DNA of 64,000 nt, taken from contig MFJU01000042.1 in assembly GCA_001779315.1 (NCBI GenBank), positions 747 through 64,746 of the forward strand. Reading direction: 5' to 3'. The stretch is from Candidatus Gottesmanbacteria bacterium RIFCSPLOWO2_01_FULL_42_22 (GTDB taxonomy: Bacteria; Patescibacteriota; Microgenomatia; 2-02-FULL-39-11). Made by a program: the position numbers and the translations under genes. Below the pieces are notes generated by a model. The model made no database searches and was not told where the DNA came from. It saw nothing but the letters and a program-made list of their open reading frames with translations. Positions 1 to 16,875 of the stretch are shown one piece after another. Positions within the stretch are counted from its first letter, which is position 1. Every line of letters begins with the position of its first letter.

Positions 1-202
1 ATTCATGTTAATATATTATAAAACTTACCAAGCTATTGATCCACACAAAGAATGGATGTTCATAACATAAAAAATGTTGAAATTAGAATAGAATAGTCCG
101 AAAATCGTCTTTTTAGTCCTCGTAGCTTTAGCGAAGTGGACCATCAGGGATGCCGAGTTTTTTTAGAGCTTCATAACTGTCTAAATAGTTAACTTCTCCA
201 TT

Positions 203-211
203 TGTTATAAT
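203..211 (+). promoter_or_regulatory. extended -10 promoter element TGTTATAAT upstream of 218-703
   Basis: TGnTATAAT 7 nt before the ATG; same 9-mer as in repeat right modules D and F. Confidence 0.45.
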
Positions 212-217
212 AATTTC

Positions 218-703
218 ATGAATAAAAAACAACCTATCGCTTATGTTATTTGCGGATTTATCGGAGCAGGTAAGACGACTTTTGCCAGAAAACTGGAAAA
301 GGAAACAAAAGCAATAAGAATTACTAAAGACGAATGGATAATAAAAATTTTCGGAAATAAAATAACGTCAGACAAAAACTTTGAAGTGTATGACAAAAAT
401 ATAACTGAGTTGGCAACGAATATTGCTTTCAAAATTCTGAAAGCCGGTAAAGATGTGATTTTAGATGAAGGTTTTTGGGTTAAATCCCAAAGAGATGATA
501 TAAAGAAGAAAATACTTCAAGTAGGAGCAAAGCCAATTTTTTATTATGTCGAAACCTCGGTAGAGAAAATGAAAGAAAGGGTTATTAACCGAAGCAATAA
601 TCCCACAAAAGATTCATTTGAAATAAATGAAGAAATGTTTGATAAATATTTAAAATATTGGGAACCACCAAAGAAAGAAGAAGGTATTCTTTTAGCTGCT
701 TAA
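218..703 (+). CDS. P-loop NTPase / predicted kinase (AAA_33-like)
   Basis: Walker A GFIGAGKTT near the N-terminus; 161 aa; TGTTATAAT extended -10 at 203-211 just upstream. Confidence 0.6.
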   Translation: MNKKQPIAYVICGFIGAGKTTFARKLEKETKAIRITKDEWIIKIFGNKITSDKNFEVYDKNITELATNIAFKILKAGKDVILDEGFWVKSQRDDIKKKILQVGAKPIFYYVETSVEKMKERVINRSNNPTKDSFEINEEMFDKYLKYWEPPKKEEGILLAA

Positions 704-784
704 CGAATTAAAGTTCGGATTGCTTCAGCTAGGGGAAGCGAGAATTAAGTATAGATTGTCACAACGATCTAGTATATTAGAAAG

Positions 785-1660
785 TCAATCTTTAGAAGCA
801 ATAAAATCTCGCAGTTTTTCCGCAGTATTAAAATCAGGATTGACCGACAATGCTGCTGCAACCCTTGCTGTCATTAATGCCTTATCCATGGGATTTAAAA
901 CATCAGGAAAGTCCATTCTTGATGCTTCTTCTTGCATTTCTGATCCAGGAAATCCATTCAGAAATGCTGCGATTTGATCATGTACAAGTTCAACATTACA
1001 TACAACATCCCTTCTTATTTTTGCAGTAGGTGAACTTAACAAGCTGTTATTTTCTTCAGATGCAGGAGATATAAACCGTCCGGTTTCCAGCTGAATTTTA
1101 TCAAGTTGATCCAAAGTTAATCGTGATTTGGTTCTCGGTTGCTCAGTTGGTACATTTTCCGCAATTTTAAAATCACCTTTAAGCACTCCGGCATCTTTTA
1201 ATTGATCAATTACCTGCTGAACTTTTTGTCGAGCAAGAGGAGAATTATTTAGTAATTCTATAAGTGTTCTTGGGTGAACTTGAAAATAGGTCGCCATTCC
1301 CAAATTAAATTTAAAATCACAACTTCTCAGTATGATATGTTCCGGATCGGACTTACTTGTCTCAACAAGGAGAGCATCTGGTATTTTTAAGGATCCTGCT
1401 TGTTTTTTAACTGCCTGATCTACATCCAACGAAATTATATGGCTTATTTCATGATCACCTTCTAATCTAAGAGCAAATCGAGCAAGCTCTGGTTGTGACC
1501 GAAATTCTTCCAGTCGAGGAAGGCACACTCTTTCTTCCCATGCCTTACCTATCCAGTTGCTGAATCCATTTCCTTTTGCATCAGCAGCTTCTCTTAACGC
1601 TTTTAATCCTTGTTGTCCAAAATGGACTTCTACTTTTCCTTCTGGTGATGAACTTAACAT
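785..1660 (-). CDS. hypothetical protein with HExxH motif (possible metallopeptidase-like)
   Basis: 291-aa ORF; GDHEISH (HExxH) motif; no other recognisable family signature. Confidence 0.35.
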   Translation of the reverse strand: MLSSSPEGKVEVHFGQQGLKALREAADAKGNGFSNWIGKAWEERVCLPRLEEFRSQPELARFALRLEGDHEISHIISLDVDQAVKKQAGSLKIPDALLVETSKSDPEHIILRSCDFKFNLGMATYFQVHPRTLIELLNNSPLARQKVQQVIDQLKDAGVLKGDFKIAENVPTEQPRTKSRLTLDQLDKIQLETGRFISPASEENNSLLSSPTAKIRRDVVCNVELVHDQIAAFLNGFPGSEMQEEASRMDFPDVLNPMDKALMTARVAAALSVNPDFNTAEKLRDFIASKD

Positions 1661-1814
1661 ATTTCAAAATTATTACTTAATCTATTTATAATTCAAAACT
1701 CACAATATGACAATAATTACCAGGATTCAAAAGTGGTTCGAAAATCGTCAAAGAATCAAGTTCTTTGTAAACCCATCCCGGAAGCTAAACCTGAGTATAA
1801 AAAATTCAAACATC

Positions 1815-1868
1815 GTCCATCCCTCGGAGCAATTTCAACGGTTTTCTATGGAATTCTTCGGATTTTAT
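1815..1868 (+). repeat. intergenic repeat copy A (right module only, degenerate)
   Basis: CGGAGCAATTTCAACGGTTTTCTATGGAATTCTTCGGATTTT. Confidence 0.6.
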
Positions 1869-1913
1869 TTTTTACCACATTTTCATCCGTGAATAATTTG
1901 TTAAAATAACAAT

Positions 1914-2525
1914 ATGAACAAAATAAAAGTTACCTCTGGGATGGCAATGTCCCTTGATGGGTTCACTGCTGGCCTAAATCAAAGTTTCGAAAAACCATTT
2001 GGAGACAATTTCGATTTAGACTTACTGGAGCGTTGGATGTTTGCTGAGCCGGAAAAGCATAAACATAAAAAAGAAATCGACGCTATTTTGGATGCAGGTG
2101 CGTTCATAATGGGTAATAATATGTTTGGCCCTAAAGACAGAAGAGACAATCCAGAATGGAAAGGGTGGTGGGGTGATAATCCCCCGTATCACGCTCCCGT
2201 TTTTGTGCTCTCCCACAAGGAGCGAGAACCGATAGAAATGGAAGGCGGAACGACATTCTTTTTTGTGACTGACGGTATTGAATCTGCTCTTTTACAAGCG
2301 AAAGAAGCAGCAGGTAATCGGAATGTAAAGATTAATGGAGGAGCAAATACCGTCAATCAATATTTAAAAGCTGGCTTTATCGATGAGCTATGGTTACATA
2401 TAGTTCCCGTAACCATTGGCGCAGGCACTCGACTTTTTGAGGAAGTGCCTCCTCTCAATCTCGAACCGATTGAAGTGAGTGGGACCAGTATGGTGACACA
2501 CATTAGATACAAAGTTTTAAAATAG
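1914..2525 (+). CDS. RibD C-terminal domain / dihydrofolate-reductase-like protein (YwjB family)
   Basis: 203 aa; N-terminal VTSGMAMSLDGF and C-terminal NGGANTVNQYLKAGFIDELWLHIVPV are typical of RibD_C reductases. Confidence 0.6.
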   Translation: MNKIKVTSGMAMSLDGFTAGLNQSFEKPFGDNFDLDLLERWMFAEPEKHKHKKEIDAILDAGAFIMGNNMFGPKDRRDNPEWKGWWGDNPPYHAPVFVLSHKEREPIEMEGGTTFFFVTDGIESALLQAKEAAGNRNVKINGGANTVNQYLKAGFIDELWLHIVPVTIGAGTRLFEEVPPLNLEPIEVSGTSMVTHIRYKVLK

Positions 2526-2548
2526 GGATTTCCACTGTATTAGCTTTT

Positions 2549-2665
2549 AGCTTCTTTATTTCATTCCATCTTTGTCTGAGTTCTCCAATATATCGTAAGT
2601 CCTGAAAAGCATGGATAATTGAGGCGTAATCAATAGTTATATTAATCCTAGGGATGGGGAGCAAG
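2549..2665 (+). repeat. intergenic repeat copy B (left module)
   Basis: ...TTCCATC...GTCCTGAAAAG...TATTAATCCTAGGGATGGGGAGCA. Confidence 0.8.
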
Positions 2666-2739
2666 TTAGACCCATAAAATTCCTTGTTGTAACTTTTTAT
2701 TAATAAAAGTATAAAATCCTGATATAATACATAATAATT

Positions 2740-3051
2740 ATGTATACCCTAGATCAGTTATTCACCTTTGGAAATTGGTTTGTGAAACTAGGCAAGGAAG
2801 AAGATTTTAAGAAGGAATGGAAAGAGTTTGCGGACTGGAGTATACGAAATAAACTAGGATCTAATACTCCATATCTCCTCCAAGATATTACCAATGTAAG
2901 ACACTTCATTTCTTTTGGTCCTTGGCCTGATGTACAAACAATCAAAAAATGGCGGCAAACGGAAGAGTTTCAACTTTTTGTAGAAAAAGCAAAAGAACTT
3001 TGCGAGAGATTTGAACCCAACACCCTAAAACTTGTAGCTCTGGGAGAGTAG
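2740..3051 (+). CDS. small hypothetical protein (possible ABM/Dabb-like ferredoxin-fold protein)
   Basis: 103-aa ORF bounded by repeats B and C; TGATATAAT promoter at 2720-2728. Confidence 0.35.
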   Translation: MYTLDQLFTFGNWFVKLGKEEDFKKEWKEFADWSIRNKLGSNTPYLLQDITNVRHFISFGPWPDVQTIKKWRQTEEFQLFVEKAKELCERFEPNTLKLVALGE

Positions 3052-3096
3052 ACTTCATAACTAACATTTTCAGAAATAAAAATCGTTATTTTGTAA

Positions 3097-3228
3097 CTTC
3101 TTTATCTCCTCCCACCTCTGCCTCAATTCACCAACCTGCCTGCCGGCAGGCAGGTATACCTTATGTCCTGAAAAACCCGGATAATTGAACTGAAATCTCG
3201 GGTTTATTAATCCTAGGGATGGGGAGTA
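3097..3228 (+). repeat. intergenic repeat copy C (left module with 20-bp palindrome)
   Basis: CTCCTCCCACCTCTG...CCTGCCTGCCGGCAGGCAGG (3135-3154)...AAAACCCGGATAATTGAACTGAAATCTCGGGTTTATTAATCCTAGGGATGGGGAG. Confidence 0.85.
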
Positions 3229-3256
3229 AAACAAATAATAATTAATAACCTCAATA

Positions 3257-3286
3257 TTGACATTCTGACAAATTCATCTGTATAAT
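3257..3286 (+). promoter_or_regulatory. sigma70-like promoter TTGACA-N18-TATAAT upstream of brnT
   Basis: TTGACA 3257-3262 and TGTATAAT ending at 3286; ATG at 3298. Confidence 0.5.
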
Positions 3287-3297
3287 GCAGTATATAC

Positions 3298-3594
3298 ATG
3301 AGGATTCTTAAAGAGCCATTGGAATTTCAGTGGGACAAAGGAAACGTAGGAAAAAGTTATAAGAAACATAAAGTAAAAGACAAAGAAGCGGAAGAGCCAT
3401 TTTTTGATAAAAGACATAAAATCTTCAAGGACAAGCTGCATTCTAAGGGTGAAGAAAGAAACAGAATTGCAGGTAAAACAAAAAAAGGGAGACTTTTATT
3501 TATAGTATTTACCATAAGAGAAAACAGAATAAGGATAATATCTGCTCGTGATATAAATAAAAAGGAGGTGTATCTATATGAAGAAAAGGCTTAA
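3298..3594 (+). CDS. brnT: BrnT-like toxin (DUF497) of type II TA system
   Basis: 98 aa; EFQWDKGN...KHKV...EAEE...RIISARDINKKE matches the BrnT signature; overlaps the downstream antitoxin by 17 nt. Confidence 0.75.
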   Translation: MRILKEPLEFQWDKGNVGKSYKKHKVKDKEAEEPFFDKRHKIFKDKLHSKGEERNRIAGKTKKGRLLFIVFTIRENRIRIISARDINKKEVYLYEEKA

Positions 3595-3844
3595 ACTGCC
3601 CGTCTTTAAAAACGAAGACGAAGAAAGAAAATTCTGGGCGAAAGTTGATTTGTCTGAATATTATGATGCTAATGATCTAGAGTTAGTCAGTTTTCCTAAT
3701 TTAAAACCGACAACTAAACCTGTATCAATCAGAATTCCTGAATATTTACTCAACAGAGTTAAAGAGGAGGCAAATGAACTTAATATTCCTTATCAGACAT
3801 TAATTAAACAGTATATTCAAAAAGGTGTTTTTTCTTCTCAATAA
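3578..3844 (+). CDS. brnA: BrnA-like antitoxin
   Basis: 88 aa; N-terminal KLPVFKNEDEERKFW and C-terminal RHH-like region; paralog of 7278-7559. Confidence 0.75.
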   Translation: MKKRLKLPVFKNEDEERKFWAKVDLSEYYDANDLELVSFPNLKPTTKPVSIRIPEYLLNRVKEEANELNIPYQTLIKQYIQKGVFSSQ

Positions 3845-3878
3845 ATCCGAATTAGGTTAAGAAGGGTTCATTTCTTAA

Positions 3879-4000
3879 AAGTTCGGATAATATCCCACAG
3901 GGGGAGCAATTTCTACGGATTTCTTCGGATTTTTTATTTTTATATACTCCATTCGGTTTTCACAGGGTTCAAACTTGGGTATTGTTATAATACTTGATAA
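3879..4000 (+). repeat. intergenic repeat copy D (truncated left module plus full right module with promoter)
   Basis: GGGGGAGCAATTTCTACGGATTTCTTCGGATTTT...TGTTATAAT (3983-3991). Confidence 0.8.
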
Positions 4001-4699
4001 ATGCTTCTTAATGCTAAACCTCTAATCTCTTGCGTTATTCCTTTTTGGAATGAAGGCTCTCGTCTCTATGCAGTACTAGATGAGGTAAGTAAAACTAAAA
4101 ATATTTTTGAAGTAATTTGTGTTGATGATGCTTCATATGAAAATAATTCAGATGAAATACGAAAACACTATCCTAATTTTAAACTTCTTCGGCTAAAAAA
4201 GAACTATGGAAAGTCCGGTGCTATCCTTGAAGGATTAAAGATAGTAAAGGGTAATTTAATTTTACTTCTCGATGCCGACATTCGTAACCTTAATCATAAT
4301 GAAATTGAAAAAGCAATAAAAATTGTCCAACAAAATCCAGACGTAGACATGCTTATCTTAAGAAGAATTAAAGCACCATTATTTGTAAAACTTACTCGAG
4401 GTGATGTTTTGGCATCAGGAGAAAGAATTGTTAAATTAAATTACTTGATGAATGTTTTAAAAAATTCAACGAAAGGATGGGAGCTTGAATCAAAAATAAA
4501 TCTGTTTATGTTTAATAATAATAAGAAAGTTTACTGGTTTCCACATTCTGGGATTAATACTCATTGGAAATGGGGCATAAAAGCGGATTTTAAATATCAT
4601 AAGAAAAAGATAGCTGATATTTACTCAATCGGTTTTACTAATCTACTTAAATTATTCTTATTTTTTGGAAAAGAAGAAGTAAAATACCAAAAAATCTAA
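4001..4699 (+). CDS. family 2 glycosyltransferase (GT-A fold)
   Basis: ISCVIPFWNE...VICVDDAS...LLLDADI motifs; paralog of 29604-30284. Confidence 0.7.
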   Translation: MLLNAKPLISCVIPFWNEGSRLYAVLDEVSKTKNIFEVICVDDASYENNSDEIRKHYPNFKLLRLKKNYGKSGAILEGLKIVKGNLILLLDADIRNLNHNEIEKAIKIVQQNPDVDMLILRRIKAPLFVKLTRGDVLASGERIVKLNYLMNVLKNSTKGWELESKINLFMFNNNKKVYWFPHSGINTHWKWGIKADFKYHKKKIADIYSIGFTNLLKLFLFFGKEEVKYQKI

Positions 4700-4763
4700 G
4701 AATATAAAAAATTGAAAGTTAGACTGTTTTGGAAAAGATAATCTCGCAAGTAGTTTTCAGTTC

Positions 4764-4826
4764 TGATAATGACCGATTGGGGGAGTAATTTCTACGGATT
4801 TCTCCGTTTTTCTTCGGATTTTATAA
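4764..4826 (+). repeat. intergenic repeat copy E (junction plus right module)
   Basis: GGGGGAGTAATTTCTACGGATTTCTCCGTTTTTCTTCGGATTTT. Confidence 0.75.
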
Positions 4827-4868
4827 ATTAATATACAATTATATACTTATCACCTATAATAACCCTTA

Positions 4869-6032
4869 ATGTTAAGAAAAGTATTCCCATTGATATTATT
4901 TTTACTTATTACAACTCCTGTTCAGGCTGTTAGTTGGCCGCCTGAGGTCAAACCGGAACAGGGAAGAGCATCCGGTACGCTAGGAATCGGGGATGATGAC
5001 AAGCTAAACGTCACCATCGACTTTTGGAATGTGGGGGTGGTGGGCGGCGGTGATTACGGGAAAGTCATAGTTGACCTCGGATGTACGCAAAAAACTATTG
5101 GTGATGGGTGGCAATGTGTAGCAGATGATGAGCCTCCTGAAATTGGAACTTTTAGCGGTGGGCCTAATGGGGAAATTACCATAAACGGAGAAACAAGCAT
5201 CCAACTGGTTAATGGAACTTATTTTAAATCTAATCTTGATAAAACATTCCAGGCAACTGTAGAGAATCCTGAAATATTTTCAAAATACAGATGGAGTATG
5301 GATGAATCGGTTCCGATCCCCGAAATTAAGGAAGGGAAATATGAGGTAGAAACCGCCGGTGCTGCAGTATTTAATGATCTTTATGGGCAGGTGGAAGTTA
5401 ATATTCCTCGTCCGGACGGAACCTATGATGAAGAGGAATGGAATCTAGCTAAAATAGACATGAAGTTGCCACCCGGCACGCGCATTAAAGTGAGTGAAAA
5501 AAGCGGTTTGATGCTTGCATTCACCGATAATCAAACAAATATTACCGTAGGACCGGAAACAGAAATCGTGCTGGTTGCAGTGGAACCGCAAGATACCGTG
5601 ATTAAACTGCTGTGGGGGAATCTGAAGGCCAATGTCAAAAAGATGATGAAGGACGGATCAATGGAAGTAGAAATGAGCCAGGCAGTTGCGGGAATTAAAG
5701 GAACCCAATTTATCTTAAATGAGACAAAGACAGAGTCTTCAATTTGGGTTACCGAAGGAACTGTTAAATTCACCAGCAAGAGTACAGGCAAATCGGTGGA
5801 TGTATCCAGAGGAGAAGCAGTAATTGCATCTGCCAAAGGTCTGTCAGAAAAAACAATCTTTGATCCGGTTGAAGAAGAAAAGAAATGGCAGGAGTTTGCA
5901 GATAATTTTAAGAAAACAAATACTTCTATTGCCGGTAATAACAATAGTATGTATATAGTAGTGGGAATTGTTTTTGCTGCTGCAATAATTGGTTTCCTTA
6001 TATTAAAAGTTAGGAAAACTAAGCGAGCTTGA
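4869..6032 (+). CDS. secreted protein with C-terminal TM anchor; C-terminal domain shared with paralogs
   Basis: N-terminal signal peptide; C-terminal hydrophobic anchor MYIVVGIVFAAAIIGFLIL; the last ~130 aa are homologous to 6324-6680 and to a relic at ~18296. Confidence 0.45.
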   Translation: MLRKVFPLILFLLITTPVQAVSWPPEVKPEQGRASGTLGIGDDDKLNVTIDFWNVGVVGGGDYGKVIVDLGCTQKTIGDGWQCVADDEPPEIGTFSGGPNGEITINGETSIQLVNGTYFKSNLDKTFQATVENPEIFSKYRWSMDESVPIPEIKEGKYEVETAGAAVFNDLYGQVEVNIPRPDGTYDEEEWNLAKIDMKLPPGTRIKVSEKSGLMLAFTDNQTNITVGPETEIVLVAVEPQDTVIKLLWGNLKANVKKMMKDGSMEVEMSQAVAGIKGTQFILNETKTESSIWVTEGTVKFTSKSTGKSVDVSRGEAVIASAKGLSEKTIFDPVEEEKKWQEFADNFKKTNTSIAGNNNSMYIVVGIVFAAAIIGFLILKVRKTKRA

Positions 6033-6049
6033 GAGAGGAGGCGCGCAAT

Positions 6050-6256
6050 AATTTCCTTATTTCCACCCATCCCTGTCTTAATTCCCCAATATATCTTAAA
6101 TCCTGAAATACCCGGGTAATTGAACTGTAATCTGCGCTTATATTAATCCTAGGGACGGGGAGCACTTTCTACCGATTTCTGCGGATTTTTTATTTTCATA
6201 AACTCCATTCGGTTTTCACAGGGTTCAAACTTGGGTATTGTTATAATACTTGATAA
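6050..6256 (+). repeat. intergenic repeat copy F (full left and right modules)
   Basis: CCACCCATCCCTG...TATTAATCCTAGGGACGGGGAGCACTTTCTACCGATTTCTGCGGATTTT...TGTTATAAT (6239-6247); right part about 96% identical to copy D. Confidence 0.85.
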
Positions 6257-6323
6257 ATGCTTCTTAATGCTAGGGACTAAGGATCCAAAATCTGGATTTA
6301 ATAAAGAGTACGACAGTTTTGAA

Positions 6324-6680
6324 ATGCAGATGGCCAAGCTCAGTGCAAAATTGAAAGGCACGACAGTAGTCGTAAAAGAAGATGGAGAAACCAGCAGCAT
6401 AAAAGTGATCGAAGGTGTGGCAGAAGTCACGGACATACAAACTGGCAAAACAGTTGAGATAAGCGAGGGTAAGATGATTGCCGCGACGGATACAGGCATC
6501 GGCGAGGTACAGGCTTTTGATGTCAACGCTGAAAACGAAAAGTGGCAGGATTTTACAGACGAAATAGGTAAAACAGGTACCAATCAAAAAAACTATCTGT
6601 ATATCTTAGTAATTCCGATAATACTGTTAGCTACTATAATCGCTGTTGTATTAGCATTAAAAAAGAAAAAAAGCGCTTAA
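6324..6680 (+). CDS. truncated paralog of the 4869-6032 C-terminal domain with TM anchor
   Basis: EKWQDFTDEIGKT vs EEKKWQEFADNFKKT plus a C-terminal TM helix. The track ORF at 6231 starts inside the repeat, so start at internal Met 6324 is preferred. Confidence 0.4.
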   Translation: MQMAKLSAKLKGTTVVVKEDGETSSIKVIEGVAEVTDIQTGKTVEISEGKMIAATDTGIGEVQAFDVNAENEKWQDFTDEIGKTGTNQKNYLYILVIPIILLATIIAVVLALKKKKSA

Positions 6681-6714
6681 AGAATTTCACTATTTAAAGA
6701 GTGCCTTCAGGTTG

Positions 6715-6860
6715 AAGTTTTTTAATCTCCTCCCACCTCTGTCTCTGCACTCCAATAAACCGAAAATCCTGAAAAACCCGGATAATTAAACTGAATGAAA
6801 TCGCGGGTTTATTAATCCTAGGGACGGGGAGCAATTTCTACGAATTTACTATGGAGATTG
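6715..6860 (+). repeat. intergenic repeat copy G
   Basis: CTCCTCCCACCTCTG...AAAACCCGGATAATTAAACTGAATGAAATCGCGGGTTTATTAATCCTAGGGACGGGGAGCAATTTCTACGAATTT. Confidence 0.85.
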
Positions 6861-6879
6861 CTTCTAATTTTTAACTTCC

Positions 6880-6888
6880 TGATATAAT
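6880..6888 (+). promoter_or_regulatory. extended -10 TGATATAAT upstream of the YciI-like gene
   Basis: Same 9-mer at 2720-2728 (before 2740) and 20061-20069 (before 20076). Confidence 0.4.
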
Positions 6889-6914
6889 CACCTTATTATT
6901 AACTTCAAAAACTT

Positions 6915-7256
6915 ATGCAATTTCTTGTAATCGGAAAAGACGGCAAAGATGAAAAGGCGCTGGAGCGAAGACTGGTAGCTCGAGAAGCTCATATTAAGTT
7001 GGGTGATGAGATGGAGAAATCAGGTGATCGATGGTATGGAGCGGTTCTTTTGGACGATAACAATAAAATGATAGGGTCTTTGGCAGTGATGGATTTTCCT
7101 TCTGAAAAAGAGTTATATGAATGGCTGAAGCGTGAGCCTTATATAACTGGTAAAGTCTGGGAAACAGTGGAAGTTTATAAATGCAATGTTAAAAATCCCT
7201 GGAAGTTTAGCCGTCCGGAATCTTTCTTTAAGGAAAGAGAAAAACTGAATAAGTAA
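6915..7256 (+). CDS. YciI-like protein
   Basis: 113 aa; MQFLVIGKDGKDEKALERRLVAREAHIK...LLDD pattern typical of YCII-related domain. Confidence 0.55.
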   Translation: MQFLVIGKDGKDEKALERRLVAREAHIKLGDEMEKSGDRWYGAVLLDDNNKMIGSLAVMDFPSEKELYEWLKREPYITGKVWETVEVYKCNVKNPWKFSRPESFFKEREKLNK

Positions 7257-7277
7257 ATTTTCAACTGATGCAATATT

Positions 7278-8050: not shown

Positions 8051-8054
8051 TTTT

Positions 8055-9468: not shown

Positions 9469-9514
9469 TTGTTGACATCATAGTGGACATACTATATGAT
9501 ATTTACATATAGAT

Positions 9515-9889: not shown

Positions 9890-10209
9890 AGCTTACAATT
9901 GTGCTTTCCACAACTCATACAGAAACCAACTGGAATGCTTTAAGACTAGCCAATCTGGCTTTGAAAAAGGGAGATGAGGTGAGTTTATTTCTTTTAGGTG
10001 AAGCAGTTGAGTATGAAAATGCCAGTAGTGATAGGTTTAATATAAAGCAGCAAATTGATACTTTTCTAAAATCAGATAAAGCAAAAATTGTCGCCTGCGG
10101 AACCTGTATGAATTTAAGAAACCAGGAAAGCACGCAAACCTGTCCTAGGGGAGGATTGGAGGATTTTTATTCTCTTATATCAACAAGTGACAAAGTATTA
10201 ACATTTTAA
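9886..10209 (+). CDS. DsrE/DsrF-like protein
   Basis: 107 aa; KIVACGTCMNLR; overlaps the PadR stop. Confidence 0.55.
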   Translation: MKLTIVLSTTHTETNWNALRLANLALKKGDEVSLFLLGEAVEYENASSDRFNIKQQIDTFLKSDKAKIVACGTCMNLRNQESTQTCPRGGLEDFYSLISTSDKVLTF

Positions 10210-10217
10210 ATTACAGA

Positions 10218-10832
10218 ATGAAAAAGTTAATCGTACTCGTTTTGCTTGCTGCATTTCTTATTAATCCTTCTGCAATTTTTGCCCAACCAATGACAGGTAA
10301 GCAATTTCAATCTGCTACTGATGATCATACAGCCGGTGAAGAAGCGGAGGGAAAAGAAATATGGGAAAGATTACAGTCGAAGCAAATAATTTGCAATGAA
10401 CTTTCATATGGAAACTTCGGTTCTTTAGGAGAATACTATATGGGTCAAATGGTAGGAGATACCGGCAGGCATGCAGTGATGAATCAAATGATGACGGCAA
10501 TGTTAGGAGAGACAAGCGAAGAAAAGATGCATGTAGTAATGGGGAAAAGAATGAGCGGTTGTTATACCGGGACGAAGGGAGGTGGTAATCCGATGATGGG
10601 TTATGGTTGGAATAACATGATGGGCGGTTGGGGAGGTTTTGGTTTAGGCTGGGTATTTATGATTTTATTCTGGGCGCTGATTATTTTGGGCGTAGTTGGA
10701 CTTATTCGTTATTTAAGCGGGCAACACAATGCGGATAAGGGTAAAACCCCTCTGGATATTCTTAGAGAACGCTATGCAAAAGGCGAGGTAGACAAAAAGG
10801 AATTTGAAGAAATGAAGAAGGATTTAAGATAA
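10218..10832 (+). CDS. secreted/membrane Gly/Met-rich protein with C-terminal SHOCT domain
   Basis: Signal peptide; TM helix; C-terminal LRERYAKGEVDKKEFEEMKKDL. Confidence 0.5.
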   Translation: MKKLIVLVLLAAFLINPSAIFAQPMTGKQFQSATDDHTAGEEAEGKEIWERLQSKQIICNELSYGNFGSLGEYYMGQMVGDTGRHAVMNQMMTAMLGETSEEKMHVVMGKRMSGCYTGTKGGGNPMMGYGWNNMMGGWGGFGLGWVFMILFWALIILGVVGLIRYLSGQHNADKGKTPLDILRERYAKGEVDKKEFEEMKKDLR

Positions 10833-10876
10833 AATTTTTAAGAAAATCAGACCGGGTTTGCAGTCTCTTTATCTCT

Positions 10877-11242
10877 TCATAACCTTTTATTGGCCATTGC
10901 ATCAGCGCGTTTTTTACCCCAGTCACAGGCAAGTTTTAGAATAGGTGTTAAAGTTTGTCCTGCAGGTGTTAATGAATATTCAACTTTTGGAGGAATTTGT
11001 CTATATATTTTTCTTGAAACGATATTATCTCCTTCGAGTTCCCGTAGCTGGCGAGTCAGCATCCTTTGACTGCAATCTGGTATAAGTTTTCGCAATTCTC
11101 CAAATCGCTTTTTGCCATCAACTAGGTTCCAAAGAATTAGTGTTTTCCACTTGCCTCCAATTAACTCAAGTGTAAATGCAATGTAGCAGAAGTAATTTTT
11201 ATCCCCGACAGTGAAGTTTGCCATTGGTATACAAAATGTCAC
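10877..11242 (-). CDS. HxlR-family transcriptional regulator
   Basis: LELIGGKWKTLILWNL...RMLTRQLRELEGDNIVSRK. Confidence 0.7.
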   Translation of the reverse strand: MTFCIPMANFTVGDKNYFCYIAFTLELIGGKWKTLILWNLVDGKKRFGELRKLIPDCSQRMLTRQLRELEGDNIVSRKIYRQIPPKVEYSLTPAGQTLTPILKLACDWGKKRADAMANKRL

Positions 11243-11320
11243 TATACAACAATTTTGTGCGTACTTGCAAGAATAAAATTAGGGTTTAACATAAATAAAA
11301 GATAAGGAGGTGAATATAAA

Positions 11321-11683
11321 ATGGATAAGAAAATGGAAGTAAAAAATTTTACCTCTCCGGATGAAGTGAGGACATTCGAAAAGGGAAAGGTAGAACTGGT
11401 TAAAATCGGAGGCGCAATGGTTGGCAAAGCAACTTTTGAACCGGGATGGAAATGGTCTTTACATGTAAAATCACTGGCTAAAACTGAATGGTGCGAAGCT
11501 CCCCATTTCCAATACCTTATTTCGGGAACATTACACGTAGTAATGGCTGACGGTACTGAAACAGACTTAAAACCCGGCAGTGTATCCCTGCTGCCATCAG
11601 GCCATGATGCTTGGGTGGTTGGAAACGAACCGGTAGTTGGGGTAGATTTTCAGGGAATGGTTGACTACGCAAAAAAAGCTTAA
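11321..11683 (+). CDS. cupin domain protein
   Basis: 120-aa cupin_2-like; divergent from HxlR; Shine-Dalgarno AAGGAGG upstream. Confidence 0.6.
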   Translation: MDKKMEVKNFTSPDEVRTFEKGKVELVKIGGAMVGKATFEPGWKWSLHVKSLAKTEWCEAPHFQYLISGTLHVVMADGTETDLKPGSVSLLPSGHDAWVVGNEPVVGVDFQGMVDYAKKA

Positions 11684-11785
11684 AGACCAAATTATTAGAA
11701 TACACAACGTATATGATTGCAAGTAGCCCATCGGAAAAATTCGAAGGGTTGCTTTATGAAAAATTAACTATTGTCCGGATTGCAG

Positions 11786-11900
11786 TTTCCTAATCTTCTC
11801 CCACTGTTGTCGTAATTCCCCAATAATCTTCAAGTCCTGAAAAACCCGGATTATTGAGGTAAAATCGCGGGTTTATTAATCCTCAGGTACGGGGAGCATT
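11786..11900 (+). repeat. intergenic repeat copy J (left module)
   Basis: CTTCTCCCACTGTTGTCGTAATTCCCCAATAATCTTCAAGTCCTGAAAAACCCGGATTATTGAGGTAAAATCGCGGGTTTATTAATCCTCAGGTACGGGGAGCA. Confidence 0.85.
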
Positions 11901-12006
11901 TGATATCCCTCTGTTTGGAGTCAGGATGGTGTGAGCTCCCGAATGAGGGATTATTTAAGGAGAAAATAGAAAAAGAAAATGACTAAATTTGAAGCTAAAA
12001 GAGAAC

Positions 12007-12034
12007 CGTCCCCTATACTACGTCCCCTATACTA
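12007..12034. repeat. tandem 14-bp direct duplication CGTCCCCTATACTA x2
   Basis: Seen directly, immediately left of the GC-richer 12.1-14.9 kb segment. Confidence 0.7.
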
Positions 12035-12107
12035 TAATTACAGTTAACCTGATATTTCGTAATAGGAAGCCGAAATAGGCAGTCTCTCACTGCTGGGCTC
12101 AGCTGTC

Positions 12108-12695
12108 TTACCAGTCTTTCGGATCTGACCAGTGGGTTCTAGCCATCACCGCTACTTCGAAATTCGGATCATCTTTGGCTTGTAATCCAACCTTTGCTAC
12201 CGGATTGTTTCCGCCTCCGAAATTTCTGGTGACCACTTTAGCACCAAGGCTGTCCGCTGCAGAATTTGCACTCTCCAGCAATTTATCCAGCAAGCCCTGC
12301 GGGTCATCAGTGACGAAATCCAGATGCATCCCTCTCACGCCATTGCCTTCTTTTCCGGCTCTATGGAATTCAACGAATATATCTTGGCCGCCCTCAACCG
12401 GAATCCTCAGGTATCTTCTGAAATGGGTGACGCCGCCGGCAACCAGGTTATTGGCGATAAGCTTGTCACCGAATTGGCCTGTTGCTTCTTCAAATGATTT
12501 ATTATCGGGATAAGTTATGCCGATGTGATGGTAAAAAGTAGGGTGACCGGCTGCCCATTCGCTGACAGGAGTCAGCAGGGCATTGAGAAAATCAGGTCTT
12601 TCGATAATTTTTTCCGCAGGGCTCATTCCCTCCCTGATGGTTTCGTCTCTTAACCCGGTAATGGAGCTGACTGTATTTAAAATATTTTCATTCAT
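12108..12695 (-). CDS. hypothetical protein
   Basis: 195-aa ORF in a locally GC-richer segment; no family recognised. Confidence 0.3.
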   Translation of the reverse strand: MNENILNTVSSITGLRDETIREGMSPAEKIIERPDFLNALLTPVSEWAAGHPTFYHHIGITYPDNKSFEEATGQFGDKLIANNLVAGGVTHFRRYLRIPVEGGQDIFVEFHRAGKEGNGVRGMHLDFVTDDPQGLLDKLLESANSAADSLGAKVVTRNFGGGNNPVAKVGLQAKDDPNFEVAVMARTHWSDPKDW

Positions 12696-12721
12696 AGAGT
12701 TTTATATAATATTGATAATGA

Positions 12722-13723
12722 TTACCGGACGACCCTTACCTCCAGGGGCAGCTCGATATTATGTTCTTTTAATACTACTTCCTGGATTAAGTCCGCGACT
12801 CTTAGATAACCCTCTGCCGAGCCGCTGCCTGTATTCCCGATAATATTGGCCGTAGATTTTGCATGGACCATTCCGCCGATCATGATAGTCTCCGGAAGTC
12901 TTCCGGTCATGCCGATAAGCTGCGTGGCCGATATTCCGTTGTATCCGGGATGGTTAAGCACGAATGTATAACCCAATGTTGCGCCGACCGACCACGGGTT
13001 TTTTTCCTTGTTCTTTTTCCTCATTTCCTGACGGCCTAAATTGATGACCGTTCTGGCTTTGGCGATTTTTTCCGGATCTCCTTCTGCCAGCTGGAACATC
13101 ACGTTAAGGACTATTTTTGTATTATCCGGTTGCGAAAAAACACTTTGGCGGTCATGCATTTCCAGCTGTGACGTGTCCATCCGCACGACATCACCGTTTT
13201 CATCGACAACCTCGACCCAACTCAAAACCTGTCTTATAGATTCAGGCAGTTCGGTATCAGTGATCCCAAACGCTTCGAAGATTTTCGTATAGTTATGAAT
13301 CGGATGCCAGGCATCCGTCACTACCGCCCCGGCTGTGCTGCCGGGAATATCCCTGGCAAATTCCAGTCCGGTTAGATTACCACTTGCCGATTCTCTGGAA
13401 ACTGCCGAAATTTTAGTTCCGCCCCCCGCGCAGATTTGTGCGGTTCCTATATTCAGATGGATACCGTTCATCTTACGGCTGTCAATTACGACAGTTTTCA
13501 TGGGATCCAGTTCGGTACCCATTAAAAGCGTATTGCTGCCACCGCCGTGAACATGAAAGGTCTGCTGGTGATCATTAAGCAGCCGGTGTAATGTGGAAGC
13601 CTGTTCTGTATTGGGATAGACAACCAGCTGCGCCCGGCTTTTGAGCAGGGTTGAGCTTACTTCCGCATTATTGACAAAATCAATACCCAATGATTGCAGG
13701 CCTGTCTCCAGTCTTGAAAGCAT
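12722..13723 (-). CDS. murB: MurB-like FAD-binding oxidoreductase (UDP-N-acetylenolpyruvoylglucosamine reductase family)
   Basis: HVHGGGSNTLL and LTGLEFARDIPGSTAGAV motifs match the MurB FAD-binding domain; C-terminal MurB_C-like region. Confidence 0.6.
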   Translation of the reverse strand: MLSRLETGLQSLGIDFVNNAEVSSTLLKSRAQLVVYPNTEQASTLHRLLNDHQQTFHVHGGGSNTLLMGTELDPMKTVVIDSRKMNGIHLNIGTAQICAGGGTKISAVSRESASGNLTGLEFARDIPGSTAGAVVTDAWHPIHNYTKIFEAFGITDTELPESIRQVLSWVEVVDENGDVVRMDTSQLEMHDRQSVFSQPDNTKIVLNVMFQLAEGDPEKIAKARTVINLGRQEMRKKNKEKNPWSVGATLGYTFVLNHPGYNGISATQLIGMTGRLPETIMIGGMVHAKSTANIIGNTGSGSAEGYLRVADLIQEVVLKEHNIELPLEVRVVR

Positions 13724-13930
13724 AGACCTATAATATACACATATATATATTATAAGTCAAACTATAAATGATTACCCGAAATTACTTTAATATCTGGAAA
13801 TAAGCATTATTAGTTGACCTTTATGAAAATATATGATAAAATCAACGAACCTTATAATAGAATTTATAAGGTTATTTAATATAATAATGTATCCCTCAGT
13901 AAGTCGGGGGATTTTTTTAATAAACGAAAT

Positions 13931-14887
13931 ATGTTCAAAGGCGAATTACAACCGGACGGAGTCTCCCTGATAGCGGGACCCTGTTCCATAGACCCGGAAA
14001 ATGTCCATCAGATTTACCAGATGGCCGATATCCGGATCAGGAACAAGAAAGGTGACTGGGTGCCCGCCCTGGCCGGAGCCAGGATTGTCGGCCTTAAATC
14101 AAGGACGGAATTCAATGCCACAGGTGATGGAATGGGTATCGATTTTCAGATCCTTGACGGTTTTATAACCAACAAAAATATCGGTGAGACCCCTCCCAGT
14201 GTCCTGATGGCTAAAGAATTCATAAAGGAAACCGGCATGGGCACTGCTGCGGAAGTCATGATCCCTGAAGCTCAAATGTACTATTATGAACAGAATCTTT
14301 CCAAAGGCAAGTTTTTTCCCTGGACTCCTGCCGTAAGCGCACTCGGTTGGCCGGCCAGGCAGATAGGCATCACCGCAGCCAGAAATGACTGGACTGTCGG
14401 GCTGAAGAATCCTAAGTGGCTTGGCCAGAGCCTGGATGACATCGAAAAAGGCAAATGCCAGACAATGAGTTCCATGGAAAAAACCTGGCGTGGCCTGGCT
14501 AATTTTGCCTCTTCTGCGGGTGCGGAAATCGCTTTCGTACACAGGGGTGTCGACATAGATGGCAAAGGAAAAATGAGGAATGCGCTGGTTCATGAAATAG
14601 TCCGGAGTCTAGCCAGGACTGCCCCTCAGACCGGCCGGTATTTTGACCCCAGCCACAGTTATGGACCTGACATGCAGGACTGCATAGTCGCCGAAACAAT
14701 CAGGACAATGAAGATGAGGGTAAACGGTGACAACGGACCGTATCTTTATACCGGCATATTGGTCGAAGTGGGTGATTCCACGACCGATACCAAACAGCAT
14801 ATCTCAGTCAGCGATTTGCAGAACTTAGCCAGGGAAATTTCTCAATTTAGGCCTTTTATTGTCCCCAAATCACATTACCTAATGTAA
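13931..14887 (+). CDS. DAHP synthase / KDO8P synthase family PEP-aldolase
   Basis: LIAGPCSID, VGLKNPKW and DPSHSYG motifs characteristic of class I-beta DAHPS/KdsA family. Confidence 0.55.
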   Translation: MFKGELQPDGVSLIAGPCSIDPENVHQIYQMADIRIRNKKGDWVPALAGARIVGLKSRTEFNATGDGMGIDFQILDGFITNKNIGETPPSVLMAKEFIKETGMGTAAEVMIPEAQMYYYEQNLSKGKFFPWTPAVSALGWPARQIGITAARNDWTVGLKNPKWLGQSLDDIEKGKCQTMSSMEKTWRGLANFASSAGAEIAFVHRGVDIDGKGKMRNALVHEIVRSLARTAPQTGRYFDPSHSYGPDMQDCIVAETIRTMKMRVNGDNGPYLYTGILVEVGDSTTDTKQHISVSDLQNLAREISQFRPFIVPKSHYLM

Positions 14888-15044
14888 GTCTGCAGTCAGT
14901 TCGGGGTAGCAATTCTAAATTTCAGCACGATTGTTTCCAAAAGGGATTCTCATAACTTCATTATTGTTCTCCGGTGTCAGTACATCCTTATTATTATGCT
15001 TATCTGTTTGTGGGGGATATCATTAGCAAATCCATTATTTCAAT

Positions 15045-15263
15045 GTGTCCGTTGTATGGAGGAGATTTAATATCAGCGACAGAATGATTCAGAAAATCAT
15101 CGGGGAAGAGGCAACAGAGACGGTTATTGCGGCTAAAAATAATAAGAAGAAAAGAATTATTGAAGAAACTGCTGATTTATTCTTCCACTTGCTTGTACTT
15201 CTTTCTCAATTTGATATAAAACCGGATGAAATGGAAATGGAATTACAAAAGCGGAAAAAATAG
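15045..15263 (+). CDS. HisE/MazG-like NTP pyrophosphohydrolase fragment
   Basis: GEEATETVIAAKNNKKKRIIEETADLFFHLLVLL resembles phosphoribosyl-ATP pyrophosphatase. GTG start; too short for full HisE, so possibly truncated. Confidence 0.4.
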   Translation: MSVVWRRFNISDRMIQKIIGEEATETVIAAKNNKKKRIIEETADLFFHLLVLLSQFDIKPDEMEMELQKRKK

Positions 15264-15289
15264 CTTTTAAAATTTAATATGTAGGTAGT

Positions 15290-15483
15290 AGCTTCCTAAT
15301 CTCCTCCCACTGTTGTCGTAATTCCCCAACCTGCCTGCCGGCAGGCAGGTATACTTCAAGTCCTGAAACACCCGGATAATTAAGGTGAAATCGCGGGTTT
15401 TTTAATCCCAGGGACGGGGAGCACATTCACTTCGTTCAGTATAAACAATTTCTACGGATTTCTTTGGGTTTCATCGGAATTTC
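15290..15483 (+). repeat. intergenic repeat copy K (full, with palindrome 15330-15349 and 24-bp insertion at junction)
   Basis: CTCCTCCCACTGTTGTCGTAATTCCCCAACCTGCCTGCCGGCAGGCAGG...CGCGGGTTTTTTAATCCCAGGGACGGGGAGCA...ATTTCTACGGATTTCTTTGGGTTTCATCGGAATTT. Confidence 0.85.
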
Positions 15484-15916
15484 ATTTGACGTCTTTTTGG
15501 AGTACATCTTTAAGAAAATTCCTTGCTTTCATAATTTTAATTCCCTCATAATCTCCAATATCAAGTAAATCTCTGTCTCCTGAAATTATATATGAAGCAG
15601 ATCCTTCTATTGCTGCTGCGATAAATTTATTATCATCGGGATCATCCTTGACGATGTCAACTTCTAAAGCTCCGGAAGTAATTATTGTTTGAGTTGATAG
15701 TGCTTGAATCATATCTTGAATGTCCTCAGGTTTAAGAAAGAAATGAGATTGTATTTCTTTCCGATCCAGGACTTCTTTTATTTCTGAAAGAATTGGAATT
15801 GAAGTGATTAATAAAAATTCTTTCTTACGCCATCCCTCAAGTAAACGATGGGGTATAGTATTTGATTTAGCGGTACCGGAAATAACCAGATTTGTATCAA
15901 TAACCACTCTTAGCAT
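15482..15916 (-). CDS. PIN-domain toxin (VapC-like)
   Basis: VVIDTNLVISG N-terminus, conserved acidic residues; overlaps the upstream antitoxin. Confidence 0.7.
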   Translation of the reverse strand: MLRVVIDTNLVISGTAKSNTIPHRLLEGWRKKEFLLITSIPILSEIKEVLDRKEIQSHFFLKPEDIQDMIQALSTQTIITSGALEVDIVKDDPDDNKFIAAAIEGSASYIISGDRDLLDIGDYEGIKIMKARNFLKDVLQKDVK

Positions 15917-16211
15917 GTTTTGTTCTTCTGACAGCTTTTACAGCCTCATTTACAATCCGTTCCACTTCTTTAGCAGGGATGCCTTTTGTCCTGGCACGAA
16001 TTCTATCAAAAACTTTAAATCCTTTTTTCCATTCCTCATTGGTGAATCTTTTAGTGGGATCTGTTAAAAATTCATACTCTTTGTAATCTATAAGAACAGC
16101 CTGGGGTTTATTAAAGCGGGTGATAATCACTTTTGTTTTCCCATAGACAGCAGTATTCAGTATCTCTGAGAACTTGTTTCTGGCATCCTGAGCGCTTACT
16201 GTTTGTGTCAT
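15897..16211 (-). CDS. Phd/YefM-type antitoxin
   Basis: SAQDARNKFSEILN...VIITRFNKPQAVLI. Confidence 0.65.
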   Translation of the reverse strand: MTQTVSAQDARNKFSEILNTAVYGKTKVIITRFNKPQAVLIDYKEYEFLTDPTKRFTNEEWKKGFKVFDRIRARTKGIPAKEVERIVNEAVKAVRRTKHAKSGY

Positions 16212-16320
16212 AAAATCCTCCTGTAGGCTACATACTAGTACAAAATGTAAGTATTGTCAAGAAGTTACAAAATAGACAGAGAATTGCTACCAAAAGCTCA
16301 TTTAGAATTTAGAATATTTC

Positions 16321-16458
16321 AGCTTCTTTATTTCCTCCCATCTTAGCCTAAACTCTCCAACCTGCCTGCCGGCAGGCAGGTATACTTCAAATTCTAAAAA
16401 GCCCGGATAAGTGAAGTGAAATCGCGGGTTTATTAATCCTCAGGAGGGGAGCAGGTTG
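16321..16458 (+). repeat. intergenic repeat copy L (left module with palindrome 16361-16380)
   Basis: ...CCAACCTGCCTGCCGGCAGGCAGGTATACTTCAAATTCTAAAAAGCCCGGATAAGTGAAGTGAAATCGCGGGTTTATTAATCCTCAGGAGGGGAGCA. Confidence 0.8.
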
Positions 16459-16551
16459 GTTCTTGCGCAAAGGGATTGCGCCTGAGGCAGAATACATAAA
16501 TTGACTTTCATGCCTAGTTTTGCCAAACTATTTATAAAGGAGGTGATTTAA

Positions 16552-16743
16552 ATGAATATGAATGCAATGTTTAAAGAATGTGTGAAACCGCACGCACTTG
16601 TACATTCACTTACGGGAGCTGCTGTTGCTTTTTTACTTTTATATTTTGTCCCGGGCTTAATTGATAAGCTATTAGTGCTCGGCATAATATTATTTGTTGC
16701 AGCCTTTATTTTGGAGTTTTTTGTTAACCCAGCACGAAAATAA
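16552..16743 (+). CDS. small membrane protein
   Basis: 63 aa with two hydrophobic helices; Shine-Dalgarno AAGGAGG upstream. Confidence 0.3.
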   Translation: MNMNAMFKECVKPHALVHSLTGAAVAFLLLYFVPGLIDKLLVLGIILFVAAFILEFFVNPARK

Positions 16744-16875
16744 TAATTTAAGAAGCGATTAAAAATGTTCCCCTTGCAGCGTTTTTCCATCCAAAGTCAT
16801 TAAATTATCTCCGATCATATTCGGAACATGTGCTGCAAGTCCTATTCCTGCGATTGGGCTAAACGCATCCTTAAC

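Follow-up and report, generated by a model that had tools for sequence, protein, structure and literature searches.

The tycheposons of Prochlorococcus are tRNA-anchored islands that grow by serial integration and gather remnants, and 27 of 937 elements carry large serine recombinases (10.1101/2020.12.28.424599). An island of this general type is described here from a 64,000-nucleotide (nt) stretch of Candidatus Gottesmanbacteria bacterium RIFCSPLOWO2_01_FULL_42_22 (contig MFJU01000042.1, positions 747 to 64,746), which is referred to as the window and to which all unmarked coordinates belong. The in-window part of this tRNA-Asn-anchored island (1..16453, + strand) consists of about 15 cassettes separated by copies of a repeat, and the left part of this repeat is the 3' coding end of a large serine recombinase (LSR) gene. 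It is very likely that the island was built next to the 3' end of tRNA-Asn(GTT) by repeated LSR-catalysed insertion, with the attachment site of the element (attP) inside the LSR gene, in a Gottesmanbacteria-like host of the candidate phyla radiation (CPR). The array is best described as decayed, possibly still mobilisable in trans, and bounded by relics of a self-splitting LSR gene; it is not an integron. Like tycheposon and Islander-type islands it has an intact tRNA at one end, core repeats inside, remnants, and niche or defence cargo, and in such islands newer insertions are thought to push older ones inward. Unlike in tycheposons, the repeat is a ~45-codon recombinase piece with an 8-nt core and not a partial tRNA, the units measure 0.56-3 kb and are without recombinase or replication genes, and the host is a CPR bacterium. 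The general phenomenon of a tRNA-anchored serial-integration island is known, but a literature survey of incomplete coverage gave neither a report of a serine recombinase whose attP lies in its own open reading frame (ORF) nor one of such elements in CPR.

Attachment sites within recombinase genes have been described for the SSV-type 'suicidal' tyrosine integrases of archaea, and a 2021 review considered self-disrupting recombinases to be exclusively archaeal (PMC8371274). The system described here shares with them the attachment site in the recombinase gene, the tRNA target, and the splitting of the gene with fragments left at both ends of the element. It differs in that the enzyme belongs to the serine superfamily and not to the Phage_integr_3 (PF16795) tyrosine recombinases, in that the hosts are Patescibacteria, and in that only the C-terminal tail is removed, so that the integrated ORF of 560-570 amino acids (aa) keeps all of its domains. 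The LSR system works like the SSV-type family but is not a member of it. In the cluster G, N and P mycobacteriophages, attP lies in the repressor gene's 3' end, the host supplies the stop codon, and the integrase is a tyrosine recombinase (PMC9262239). Location of attP at the 3' end of a gene, a tRNA 3' end as target and replacement of the C-terminus of the product are common to these phages and to the present system, but the gene that is split here is the recombinase itself and not a repressor.

The homologous LSR has the Resolvase, Recombinase and zinc-ribbon domains of phage serine integrases such as those of phiC31, Bxb1 and SPbeta. As with these enzymes, the attachment sites appear to be short, with about 26 bp at the core conserved without codon periodicity (cf. 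PMC11722253). Unlike the phage enzymes, the LSR has attP in its own 3' coding region, integration swaps ~45 C-terminal residues, the target is a tRNA end, and the tandem arrays imply action on or near product sites. No recombination directionality factor was identified. Tandem insertion by serine recombinases is also known from the staphylococcal cassette chromosome (SCC) islands at rlmH (orfX), where the CcrAB large serine recombinases place elements in a row at this conserved gene's 3' end and recombinase-less pseudo-SCC elements lie between short direct repeats. The SCC system uses another target gene in another clade, its units are much larger, and its attachment site lies outside the ccr genes. 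Finally, the locus resembles integrons and clusters of attC sites lacking an integron integrase (CALINs) in that single-gene or toxin-antitoxin cassettes without a recombinase gather at one site, the recombination sites are co-oriented, and most of the variation is found at the anchor end. It is unlike them in having no IntI, attI or attC hairpin, in that the cassettes carry promoter-like sequences, and in that the genes lie on both strands.

A first-pass annotation, made from the letters of the window, had noted at least 12 copies of a bipartite intergenic repeat confined to the first 16.5 kb and all oriented alike on the + strand. Direct-repeat detection and nhmmer confirm that this repeat family is real, and so confined and oriented. 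With an nhmmer profile seeded with seven left-module copies and run on the window, seven full left modules of 115-135 nt were found on the + strand (E 1e-30 to 1e-34), as well as a 3' partial one (7943-8009) and a weak 5' fragment (9426-9469), and a third truncated copy, also a 5' fragment, was recognised by eye (10848-10880); in the 17-64 kb part of the window the profile gave chance-level matches only. A core, GGGGAG(C/T)A, is present at ten intergenic junctions, where it ends at 2663, 3228, 3908, 4787, 6164, 6833, 8009, 11898, 15423 and 16453, and degenerate cores end at 739, 1830 and 14911. The 10 exact and three degenerate cores make 13 junctions, in line with the number of copies first reported, and it is from these that about 15 cassettes are counted. 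The sequence to the right of the core differs from junction to junction. Right modules, which are composed of tandem ~10-nt units TTTCTACGGA, number seven: six directly follow the core (at 1831, 3909, 4788, 6165, 6834 and 8010) and the seventh, at 15446, is displaced from it by 22 nt. Additionally, there are five short junctions beside the left and right modules. The switch between modules at GGGGAG(C/T)A had been pointed out before and is confirmed; copies with the left module only, the right module only and both are seen.

Pfam searches of the array ORFs agree with the cargo listed earlier. The cassettes encode an AAA_33 kinase, RibD_C, ABM, two BrnT/CopG-type antitoxin pairs, GT2, FecR, YCII and two HxlR proteins, as well as a quinone oxidoreductase, PadR, DsrE, SHOCT, cupin, MurB-like, PRA-PH and a PIN/Phd pair. 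These genes lie on both strands in units of one to three, within the size range given above, and without recombinase or replication genes; by eye, the cassettes bear their own promoter-like sequences.

The nature of the left module is evident from its minus strand, which translates to a recurring peptide, LLP(V/I)PRINITIDY.SII..FQDLRYIGELRQRWEEIKKLQ. This peptide matched no Pfam or NCBIfam family, and no relative of it was found in a viral contig collection. Over 79 distinct copies taken from the window and related loci, the three codon positions have entropies of 0.58/0.28/1.16, and all six codons are in use for Leu and for Arg and all four for Gly. In another alignment, whose copies were picked at the DNA level alone, the 21 codons most distant from the core have values of 0.24/0.56/1.17. 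In both tests the left module shows purifying selection at the protein level. The 26 core-proximal columns of the second alignment are conserved without three-base periodicity, which fits a protein-binding DNA site. A word-indexed protein search returned only ORFs of 33-70 aa (42 of 42 matches), but a profile search of 1.84 billion representatives found it in longer proteins, where it forms the very C-terminal end; these proteins, including P0096, P0106, P0160, P0053 and P0099, show LSR zinc-ribbon, coiled-coil and C-terminal regions.

Among 80 metagenome loci that encode the tail peptide, one (L010:8315-10159) contains an intact LSR of 614 aa with Resolvase (PF00239), Recombinase (PF07508) and Zn_ribbon_recom (PF13408) domains. 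This protein ends ...FYSKNPSL/LPEPRINITIDFSSIINAFQDLRYIGELRQRWNEIKKLQ, that is, in the module peptide (here and below a slash marks the exchange point). Partial or frameshifted LSRs fused to the tail are found in L088, L035 and L063. The window modules match residues 559-609 of the L010 LSR with E values down to 7e-20 (phmmer), and with P0175, the database entry of this LSR, they give E 2e-35 in an alignment that reaches five residues upstream of the core. These matches show that the left modules are C-terminal coding relics of an LSR, of which no more than the last ~45 codons are present in the window; the repeat is not a structured intergenic site but what is left of the 3' end of a gene. 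A fragment of an SSV-type tyrosine integrase, suggested by a loose likeness of PRINITIDYAS to LGH..T..Y, was also considered as the source of the peptide and was dropped because the long homologues are serine recombinases.

The anchor of the island lies outside the window. Four contigs (L004, L005, L006 and L007), which come from k141 assemblies of different samples and were retrieved through the exact protein of the first gene, match the window over the aligned stretch. Source groundwater metagenomes are ERZ27254846, ERZ4903072, ERZ4903055 and ERZ27254843. Window position 1 corresponds to L004 9784, and L004 carries an intact tRNA-Asn(GTT) gene (ARAGORN, 9086-9158) about 630 nt to the left of it, at about -697..-625 in window coordinates. 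This gene ends ..CCTACCGGGGGAGCA, and GGGGGAGCA sits at a breakpoint that is common to all four contigs. The contigs are identical rightwards from ...GGGGAGCA/AAAGCCATTACAG; to the left of the breakpoint, tRNA-Asn is found in L004, a left module in both L005 and L006, and yet another sequence, a second tail relic, in L007. It follows from this switch that the junction is the tRNA's 3' end and a real exchange point in the population. The role of GGGGAGCA as the exchange point, which had been proposed earlier, is borne out by these three contig variants that are the same to the right and differ to the left, and we argue that a chimeric assembly join through an 8-nt repeat is not possible at a k-mer size of 141. 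A recombinase upstream of position 1, which had also been suggested, is not there: the 10 kb to the left in L004 hold tRNA-Asn and housekeeping genes (GHMP kinase, dnaG, rpoD, aldo-keto reductase, SRAP, cysS and yjbQ).

The island has an intact tRNA at its boundary whose 3' end is the attachment core, as expected of tRNA-anchored islands, and direct core repeats stand between the elements and at the far boundary (10 exact and 3 degenerate, + strand). In eight of the 80 metagenome loci, tRNA-Asn was found on the expected side and strand, and in L031 and L033 the right module directly follows the tRNA. The most conserved 20-mer of the repeat matches only two Candidatus Gottesmanbacteria metagenome-assembled genomes when one genome per species is scanned, and it is multi-copy in both. 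The earlier proposal that related genomes be compared for reshuffled modules gave a positive result, as cassettes are reordered in Gottesmanbacteria MFJA01000083 (FecR; HxlR-cupin; PadR-DsrE). Some further observations concern the target. dnaG and rpoD lie close to the target tRNA-Asn in two CPR genomes (L004 1-9160 and L097 11700-16100), which places the hotspot in a conserved housekeeping neighbourhood. In L015 and L018 (11686-11771) and in L053 (7038-7113), the nearest tRNA on the expected side and strand of a left module is tRNA-Ser(TGA) or tRNA-Val(GAC) and not tRNA-Asn, and some members of the family may use other tRNA targets.

The LSR gene was found in two configurations. In L010 and L088 the ORF is continuous across the core. 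In L040, L055 and L071, tRNA-Asn (ARAGORN) has directly beside it an LSR, or what remains of one, that reads toward the tRNA and stops within its antisense; the L040 LSR ends ...RKSG/LPRVDSNRQPCP and a stop, where DSN is the antisense of the T-loop, and two L040 ORFs match the Resolvase, Recombinase and zinc-ribbon domains. In L097 the LSR likewise ends in the antisense of a tRNA-Asn-like gene, which received no ARAGORN call and lies beside rpoD and dnaG as in L004. The existence of a continuous and a tRNA-joined form of the same gene places attP inside the recombinase gene. The L010 LSR has 4573 homologues at E<=1e-20, and among the best 120 of these the source-named ones are mostly from Patescibacteria (Levybacteria, Daviesbacteria and Shapirobacteria). 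Within the same best 120 of 4573, the C-terminus is a tRNA antisense of the ..LLPRVDSN.. type in 36 proteins and the stop lies at most three residues from the core in 47 (83/120 for both together); four proteins have the module tail, 16 have other long tails, and in 17 the core was not located by pattern. LLPR followed by a stop is the exact antisense of ..CCTACCGGGGGAGCA. The tRNA-Asn-like gene of L097 (11690-12010) itself seems to be split, with about 270 nt inserted where its 5' half would meet its 3' half, and may be an intron-containing tRNA in a CPR genome. The LSR elements of L010 (1672-12178) and L097 (3984-9958) have an HTH_36/DnaD_N-like protein beside the LSR and STAND NTPases of about 1366 aa, L010 also has a KAP NTPase, and the cargo of both looks defence-like.

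Other junctions point to further LSR tails. The L007 junction carries a second tail family, LLPLVDVFRNREIEFGFSL.., that matches the C-termini of P0243 and P0186 at E 8e-20. The short junctions ending at 3908, 4787 and 1830 align weakly (E 0.08-1.3) to still other tail families at the homologous position and are probably tails of sister LSR subfamilies. The antisense of the right module, (K)IRRNP-stop-KL/LP with an in-frame TAG, weakly resembles ..RNPTLL/P and ..SKNPSL/LP just upstream of the LSR core, and the right module looks like a stub of the last LSR codons before the core. An identical stub with the TAG precedes unrelated cargo in the window and is found at about one junction in five in other genomes. 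Among LSR proteins, the tail families beyond the ..NPxLL core include LPLVD.FRNREIEF.., ..W.DFRT.NW.. and LRAM..VRTW.. (P0186, P0243 and P0276; P0224, P0239, P0246 and P0250; P0233, P0281, P0289 and P0294); these tails may mark distinct attP lineages or may have a function of their own.

Taken as a mechanism, attP would lie within the last ~50 codons of the recombinase gene, in about 60 bp around ..AATCCTTCCTTG/CTCCCCGAGCC.. of the LSR ORF, and the crossover would take place inside the 8-nt core GGGGAGC(A), which corresponds to the 3' strand of the tRNA acceptor and the discriminator. The empty site would read tRNA-Asn and then directly GGTTGGTTCTTGCGC. Integration would leave the tRNA intact, join the LSR body to the tRNA, such that the ORF then ends ..LLPR and a stop or ..LLPRVDSN.., and leave the final ~45 codons (..LLPxPRINITIDF..FQDLRYIGELRQRWEEIKKLQ) stranded at the element's far end. 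The left module would be this stranded tail and the right module the LSR stub upstream of the core (antisense RNP-stop-KL/LP compared with ..NPSLL/P). Autonomous elements with the LSR at one end would have integrated at the tRNA and lost their LSR bodies later, with newer insertions entering at the tRNA-proximal end. Polymorphism of the proximal junction together with a constant distal order fits the entry of later insertions at that end. If each insertion leaves a coding relic in this way, the tails can be used to delimit cassettes, to date insertions and to name the recombinase subfamily. CPR genomes are tiny and how they acquire genes is poorly understood; the locus is a defined hotspot at the 3' end of tRNA-Asn, beside dnaG and rpoD, where toxin-antitoxin, regulator, redox and cell-envelope genes pile up as small units.

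Several results weigh against this mechanism. Neither the window nor the adjoining 10 kb on its left yielded an LSR body or any other recombinase. In the window, motif regular expressions for tyrosine and serine recombinases and phmmer with an LSR query returned nothing beyond the tail relics, and Pfam, run on the array ORFs, found no recombinase either; in agreement with the first-pass annotation, no integrase was found by motif in any frame. A recombinase inside the island was not found in the window or its left flank but is present in L040, L055, L071 and L097, and catalysis at this locus is therefore deduced from relics and relatives. Two of the LSR genes that serve as references, those of L040 and L088, themselves contain a frameshift or stop codon. 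For the right module and the short junctions, the matches to LSR sequence are weak (E 0.06-1.3). The distal ten or so cassettes stand in constant order in eight other contigs, and recent mobility is documented at the tRNA-proximal junction only. An inverted-repeat search around the core (find_repeats type) found no dyad symmetry, and an AATCC/GGATT pair was seen by eye only. Identity between module and tRNA beyond the 8-nt core is not significant, as local alignments to the 3' half of the tRNA were reached by 63-1857 of 2000 shuffles. Additionally, serine integrases are described as inactive on product sites (10.1101/2025.05.02.651858). For the array to grow at a tRNA that is already in an attL, site choice would have to be relaxed or the P' half-site to have decayed. 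Relaxed site choice is known for CcrAB and SCC composite islands. tRNA mimicry by the module beyond the core had been entertained as a separate idea and was dropped, since an Rfam search of 1-17000 at E<=10 was without tRNA and the alignments were no better than shuffles.

The alternative that survives best is that the array is purely fossil, each cassette being a decayed autonomous LSR element and nothing being mobile now. The lack of an LSR in the window, the constant distal order in eight contigs and the truncation or frameshift of several modules are as expected for a fossil, and we regard it as a possibility to be taken seriously, if on balance a doubtful one. Unrelated cargo in several genomes shares a ~25-45-nt stub with the same in-frame TAG, which argues for one LSR-less lineage that spread and not for independent decay; moreover, the tRNA-proximal junction is polymorphic between samples and cassettes are reshuffled between species. 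The occurrence of one pseudogenised stub across unrelated cargo, together with cassette-sized units that have both half-sites, favours a trans-mobilised lineage without a recombinase. Whether an LSR encoded at another place still moves the LSR-less cassettes, with their two ~25-bp half-sites, in trans appears almost evenly balanced, leaning slightly to the negative. A more far-reaching proposal, which is offered tentatively and may well fail, is that of an integron-like capture platform in CPR in which LSRs insert both their own elements and, in trans, tiny cassettes, while the tail swap serves as an integration-dependent switch of activity or stability. If this were true, the archaeal 'suicidal' integrases would for the first time have a counterpart of the serine family in bacteria. 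Should the tail swap regulate the enzyme, or cassettes with ~50-bp sites move in trans, these would be natural serine integrases for a conserved tRNA site, with a directionality mechanism unlike the known directionality factors.

It could also be supposed that the left module is a free-standing gene of ~45-60 codons, a regulator or a stabilising peptide, that works in every cassette. Many copies are open from an NTG that straddles the junction, the matches of the first protein search were all of the size of such a peptide, the signature of purifying selection is strong, and three of the seven full copies in the window have an open frame. This reading is nonetheless improbable: the other four full copies have frameshifts or stops and a further three are truncated, full-length LSRs have the peptide as their C-terminus, it belongs to no Pfam or NCBIfam family, and the selection signature is what would be expected were each insertion to draw its copy from a functional LSR gene. 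Still less likely is a tRNA island of a tyrosine integrase (lambda, P4 or tycheposon type), in which the modules would be P and P' arms and the CGGATTTCT units arm-type sites. Tyrosine integrases usually target the 3' ends of tRNA genes, there are documented cases of serial insertion with partial-tRNA repeats left behind, and the right module consists of phased ~10-nt direct repeats, all of which would suit such an island; however, the gene continuous with the left module is an LSR, as is the gene that abuts tRNA-Asn in L040, L055, L071 and L097, no tyrosine recombinase is linked to the related loci, and the identity to tRNA spans about 8 nt compared with the usual tRNA fragment of 20-50 nt.

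That the locus is an integron-like array or CALIN, with attC-type hairpin sites and an IntI-type tyrosine recombinase, is extremely unlikely, for although it has co-oriented repeats after single genes and toxin-antitoxin pairs, a fixed exchange point and GTTAGAC at one junction (2665-2671), the repeat has codon periodicity and homology to an LSR C-terminus, RNAalifold found no consensus pair in 79 copies, GTTRRRY is missing from the other junctions, there is no relevant Rfam match, no tyrosine recombinase motif occurs in the window, and 630 kb of related loci hold one Xer-like gene. The lack of a consensus structure, which answers the earlier suggestion that an attC-like hairpin be sought in the folded strand, is the point at which the attC analogy falls. 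The earlier statement that canonical attC R''/R' cores are missing holds, with the one GTTAGAC as the only GTTRRRY at a junction. In Rfam searches no family reached the gathering threshold in the window and nothing relevant appeared at E<=10 in 1-17000. No IntI was found, and an IntI next to the array is not required for a CALIN. From the first-pass interpretation, then, the cassette-like array, the exchange point and a non-canonical system are retained, and the integron/attC analogy and the upstream recombinase are given up. A hairpin seen by eye, pairing CTCCTCCCACC, close to the module's 5' end, with GGGACGGGGAG at the 3' end, was likewise dropped after RNAalifold returned no consensus pair.

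The individual junctions of the island are described here from the tRNA-proximal end. The left modules, read as tail relics, are on the minus strand, and short and degenerate junctions have no strand assigned. Cassette 1, which encodes the P-loop kinase (218-703), is ended by a degenerate short junction (710..740) with the core GGGGAAGC at 732-739 and the antisense LPLAEAIRTLIR followed by a stop; it has no significant match to an LSR tail. The next junction (1803..1866) is also degenerate, with a core CGGAGCA ending at 1830 and a right module at 1831-1866; its antisense reads ..FHRKPLKL/LRGMDDV and a stop, and LLRGMDDV weakly resembles P0233 560-567 (E 0.17). The left module at 2549..2663 (core 2656-2663) is a tail relic with an open frame of 53 codons and the antisense FYGSN LLPIPRINITIDYASIIHAFQDLRYIGELRQRWNEIKKLK, and it matches the L010 LSR at E 7e-20 and P0175 552-601 at E 2e-35. 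It is followed by a left module (3095..3228) with the core GGGGAGTA at 3221-3228 and a 20-nt palindrome (3135-3154) that shifts the frame. Two short junctions come next. The first (3878..3935) has its core at 3901-3908, an antisense tail LPLWDIIRTFKK ending in a stop, in which NPKLLPLWDIIRT weakly resembles P0224 559-571 (E 0.08), and a right module at 3909-3935; the second (4757..4822) has the core GGGGAGTA at 4780-4787, a right module at 4788-4822 and a weak LSR match.

Both modules are present at 6050..6190, where the left module (6050-6164, E 5e-21) has a tail relic open from GTG, the core lies at 6157-6164 and the right module at 6165-6190, and at 6716..6848, where the left module (6716-6833, E 4e-18) ends in a core at 6826-6833 and is followed by a short right module (6834-6848). 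At 7943..8053 only the core-proximal 67 nt of the left module are left (7943-8009, core 8002-8009; nhmmer E 2e-9, LSR match E 2e-10), and the right module (8010-8053) consists of four ~10-nt units. A truncated left module on the minus strand at 9426..9469 keeps the stop-proximal end, with RYIGELRLR (E 0.32, a weak match), and has its core deleted; another probable truncated module, recognised by eye on the same strand, comprises about 30 nt of the KKLQ end (10848..10880). The left module at 11784..11898 (core 11891-11898) has a frame from ATG with two stop codons inside. The degenerate junction at 14897..14926 has the core GGGGTAGCA at 14903-14911 and a weak LSR match (E 0.06); its antisense, NLE/LLPRTD, resembles a join of LSR and tRNA antisense (attL type). 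At 15289..15481, a left module (15289-15423) with a palindrome at 15330-15349 and a core at 15416-15423 precedes the displaced right module (15446-15481). The last left module (16321..16453), with a palindrome at 16361-16380 and a core at 16446-16453, is the right end of the array as judged by repeats. The perfect palindrome, CCTGCCTGCCGGCAGGCAGG, is identical in these three left modules (3135-3154, 15330-15349 and 16361-16380) and stands at the same internal position, where it shifts the reading frame of the relic. Against its AT-rich surroundings it is GC-rich, and the window has no further copy of it; it is also found at L040 1899-1918, and a mini-insertion or a hairpin element are candidate origins.

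Some observations on composition and on the right end of the array can be added. For the RTX-like protein encoded on the array's right side, an exact-match look-up returned no record. The first 12 kb have a GC content of 0.35-0.37 and the stretch of 12-18 kb one of 0.42-0.45, and elsewhere it ranges from 0.34 to 0.47 and is mostly about 0.40; the rise within the array suggests that the distal cassettes come from donors other than those of the proximal ones. A stretch of 116 nt is duplicated with 96% identity (3901-4016 and 6157-6272). Contained in it are the right module, a TTG...TATAAT that looks like a promoter and the GT2 gene's first five codons, and it is fused to a C-terminal piece of the FecR-domain gene (6231-6680). 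A fragment of the FecR tail occurs at 5869-5924, 6526-6581 and 18291-18346, and as the third copy (88% identity) lies beyond the last repeat, the island may extend past 16453.

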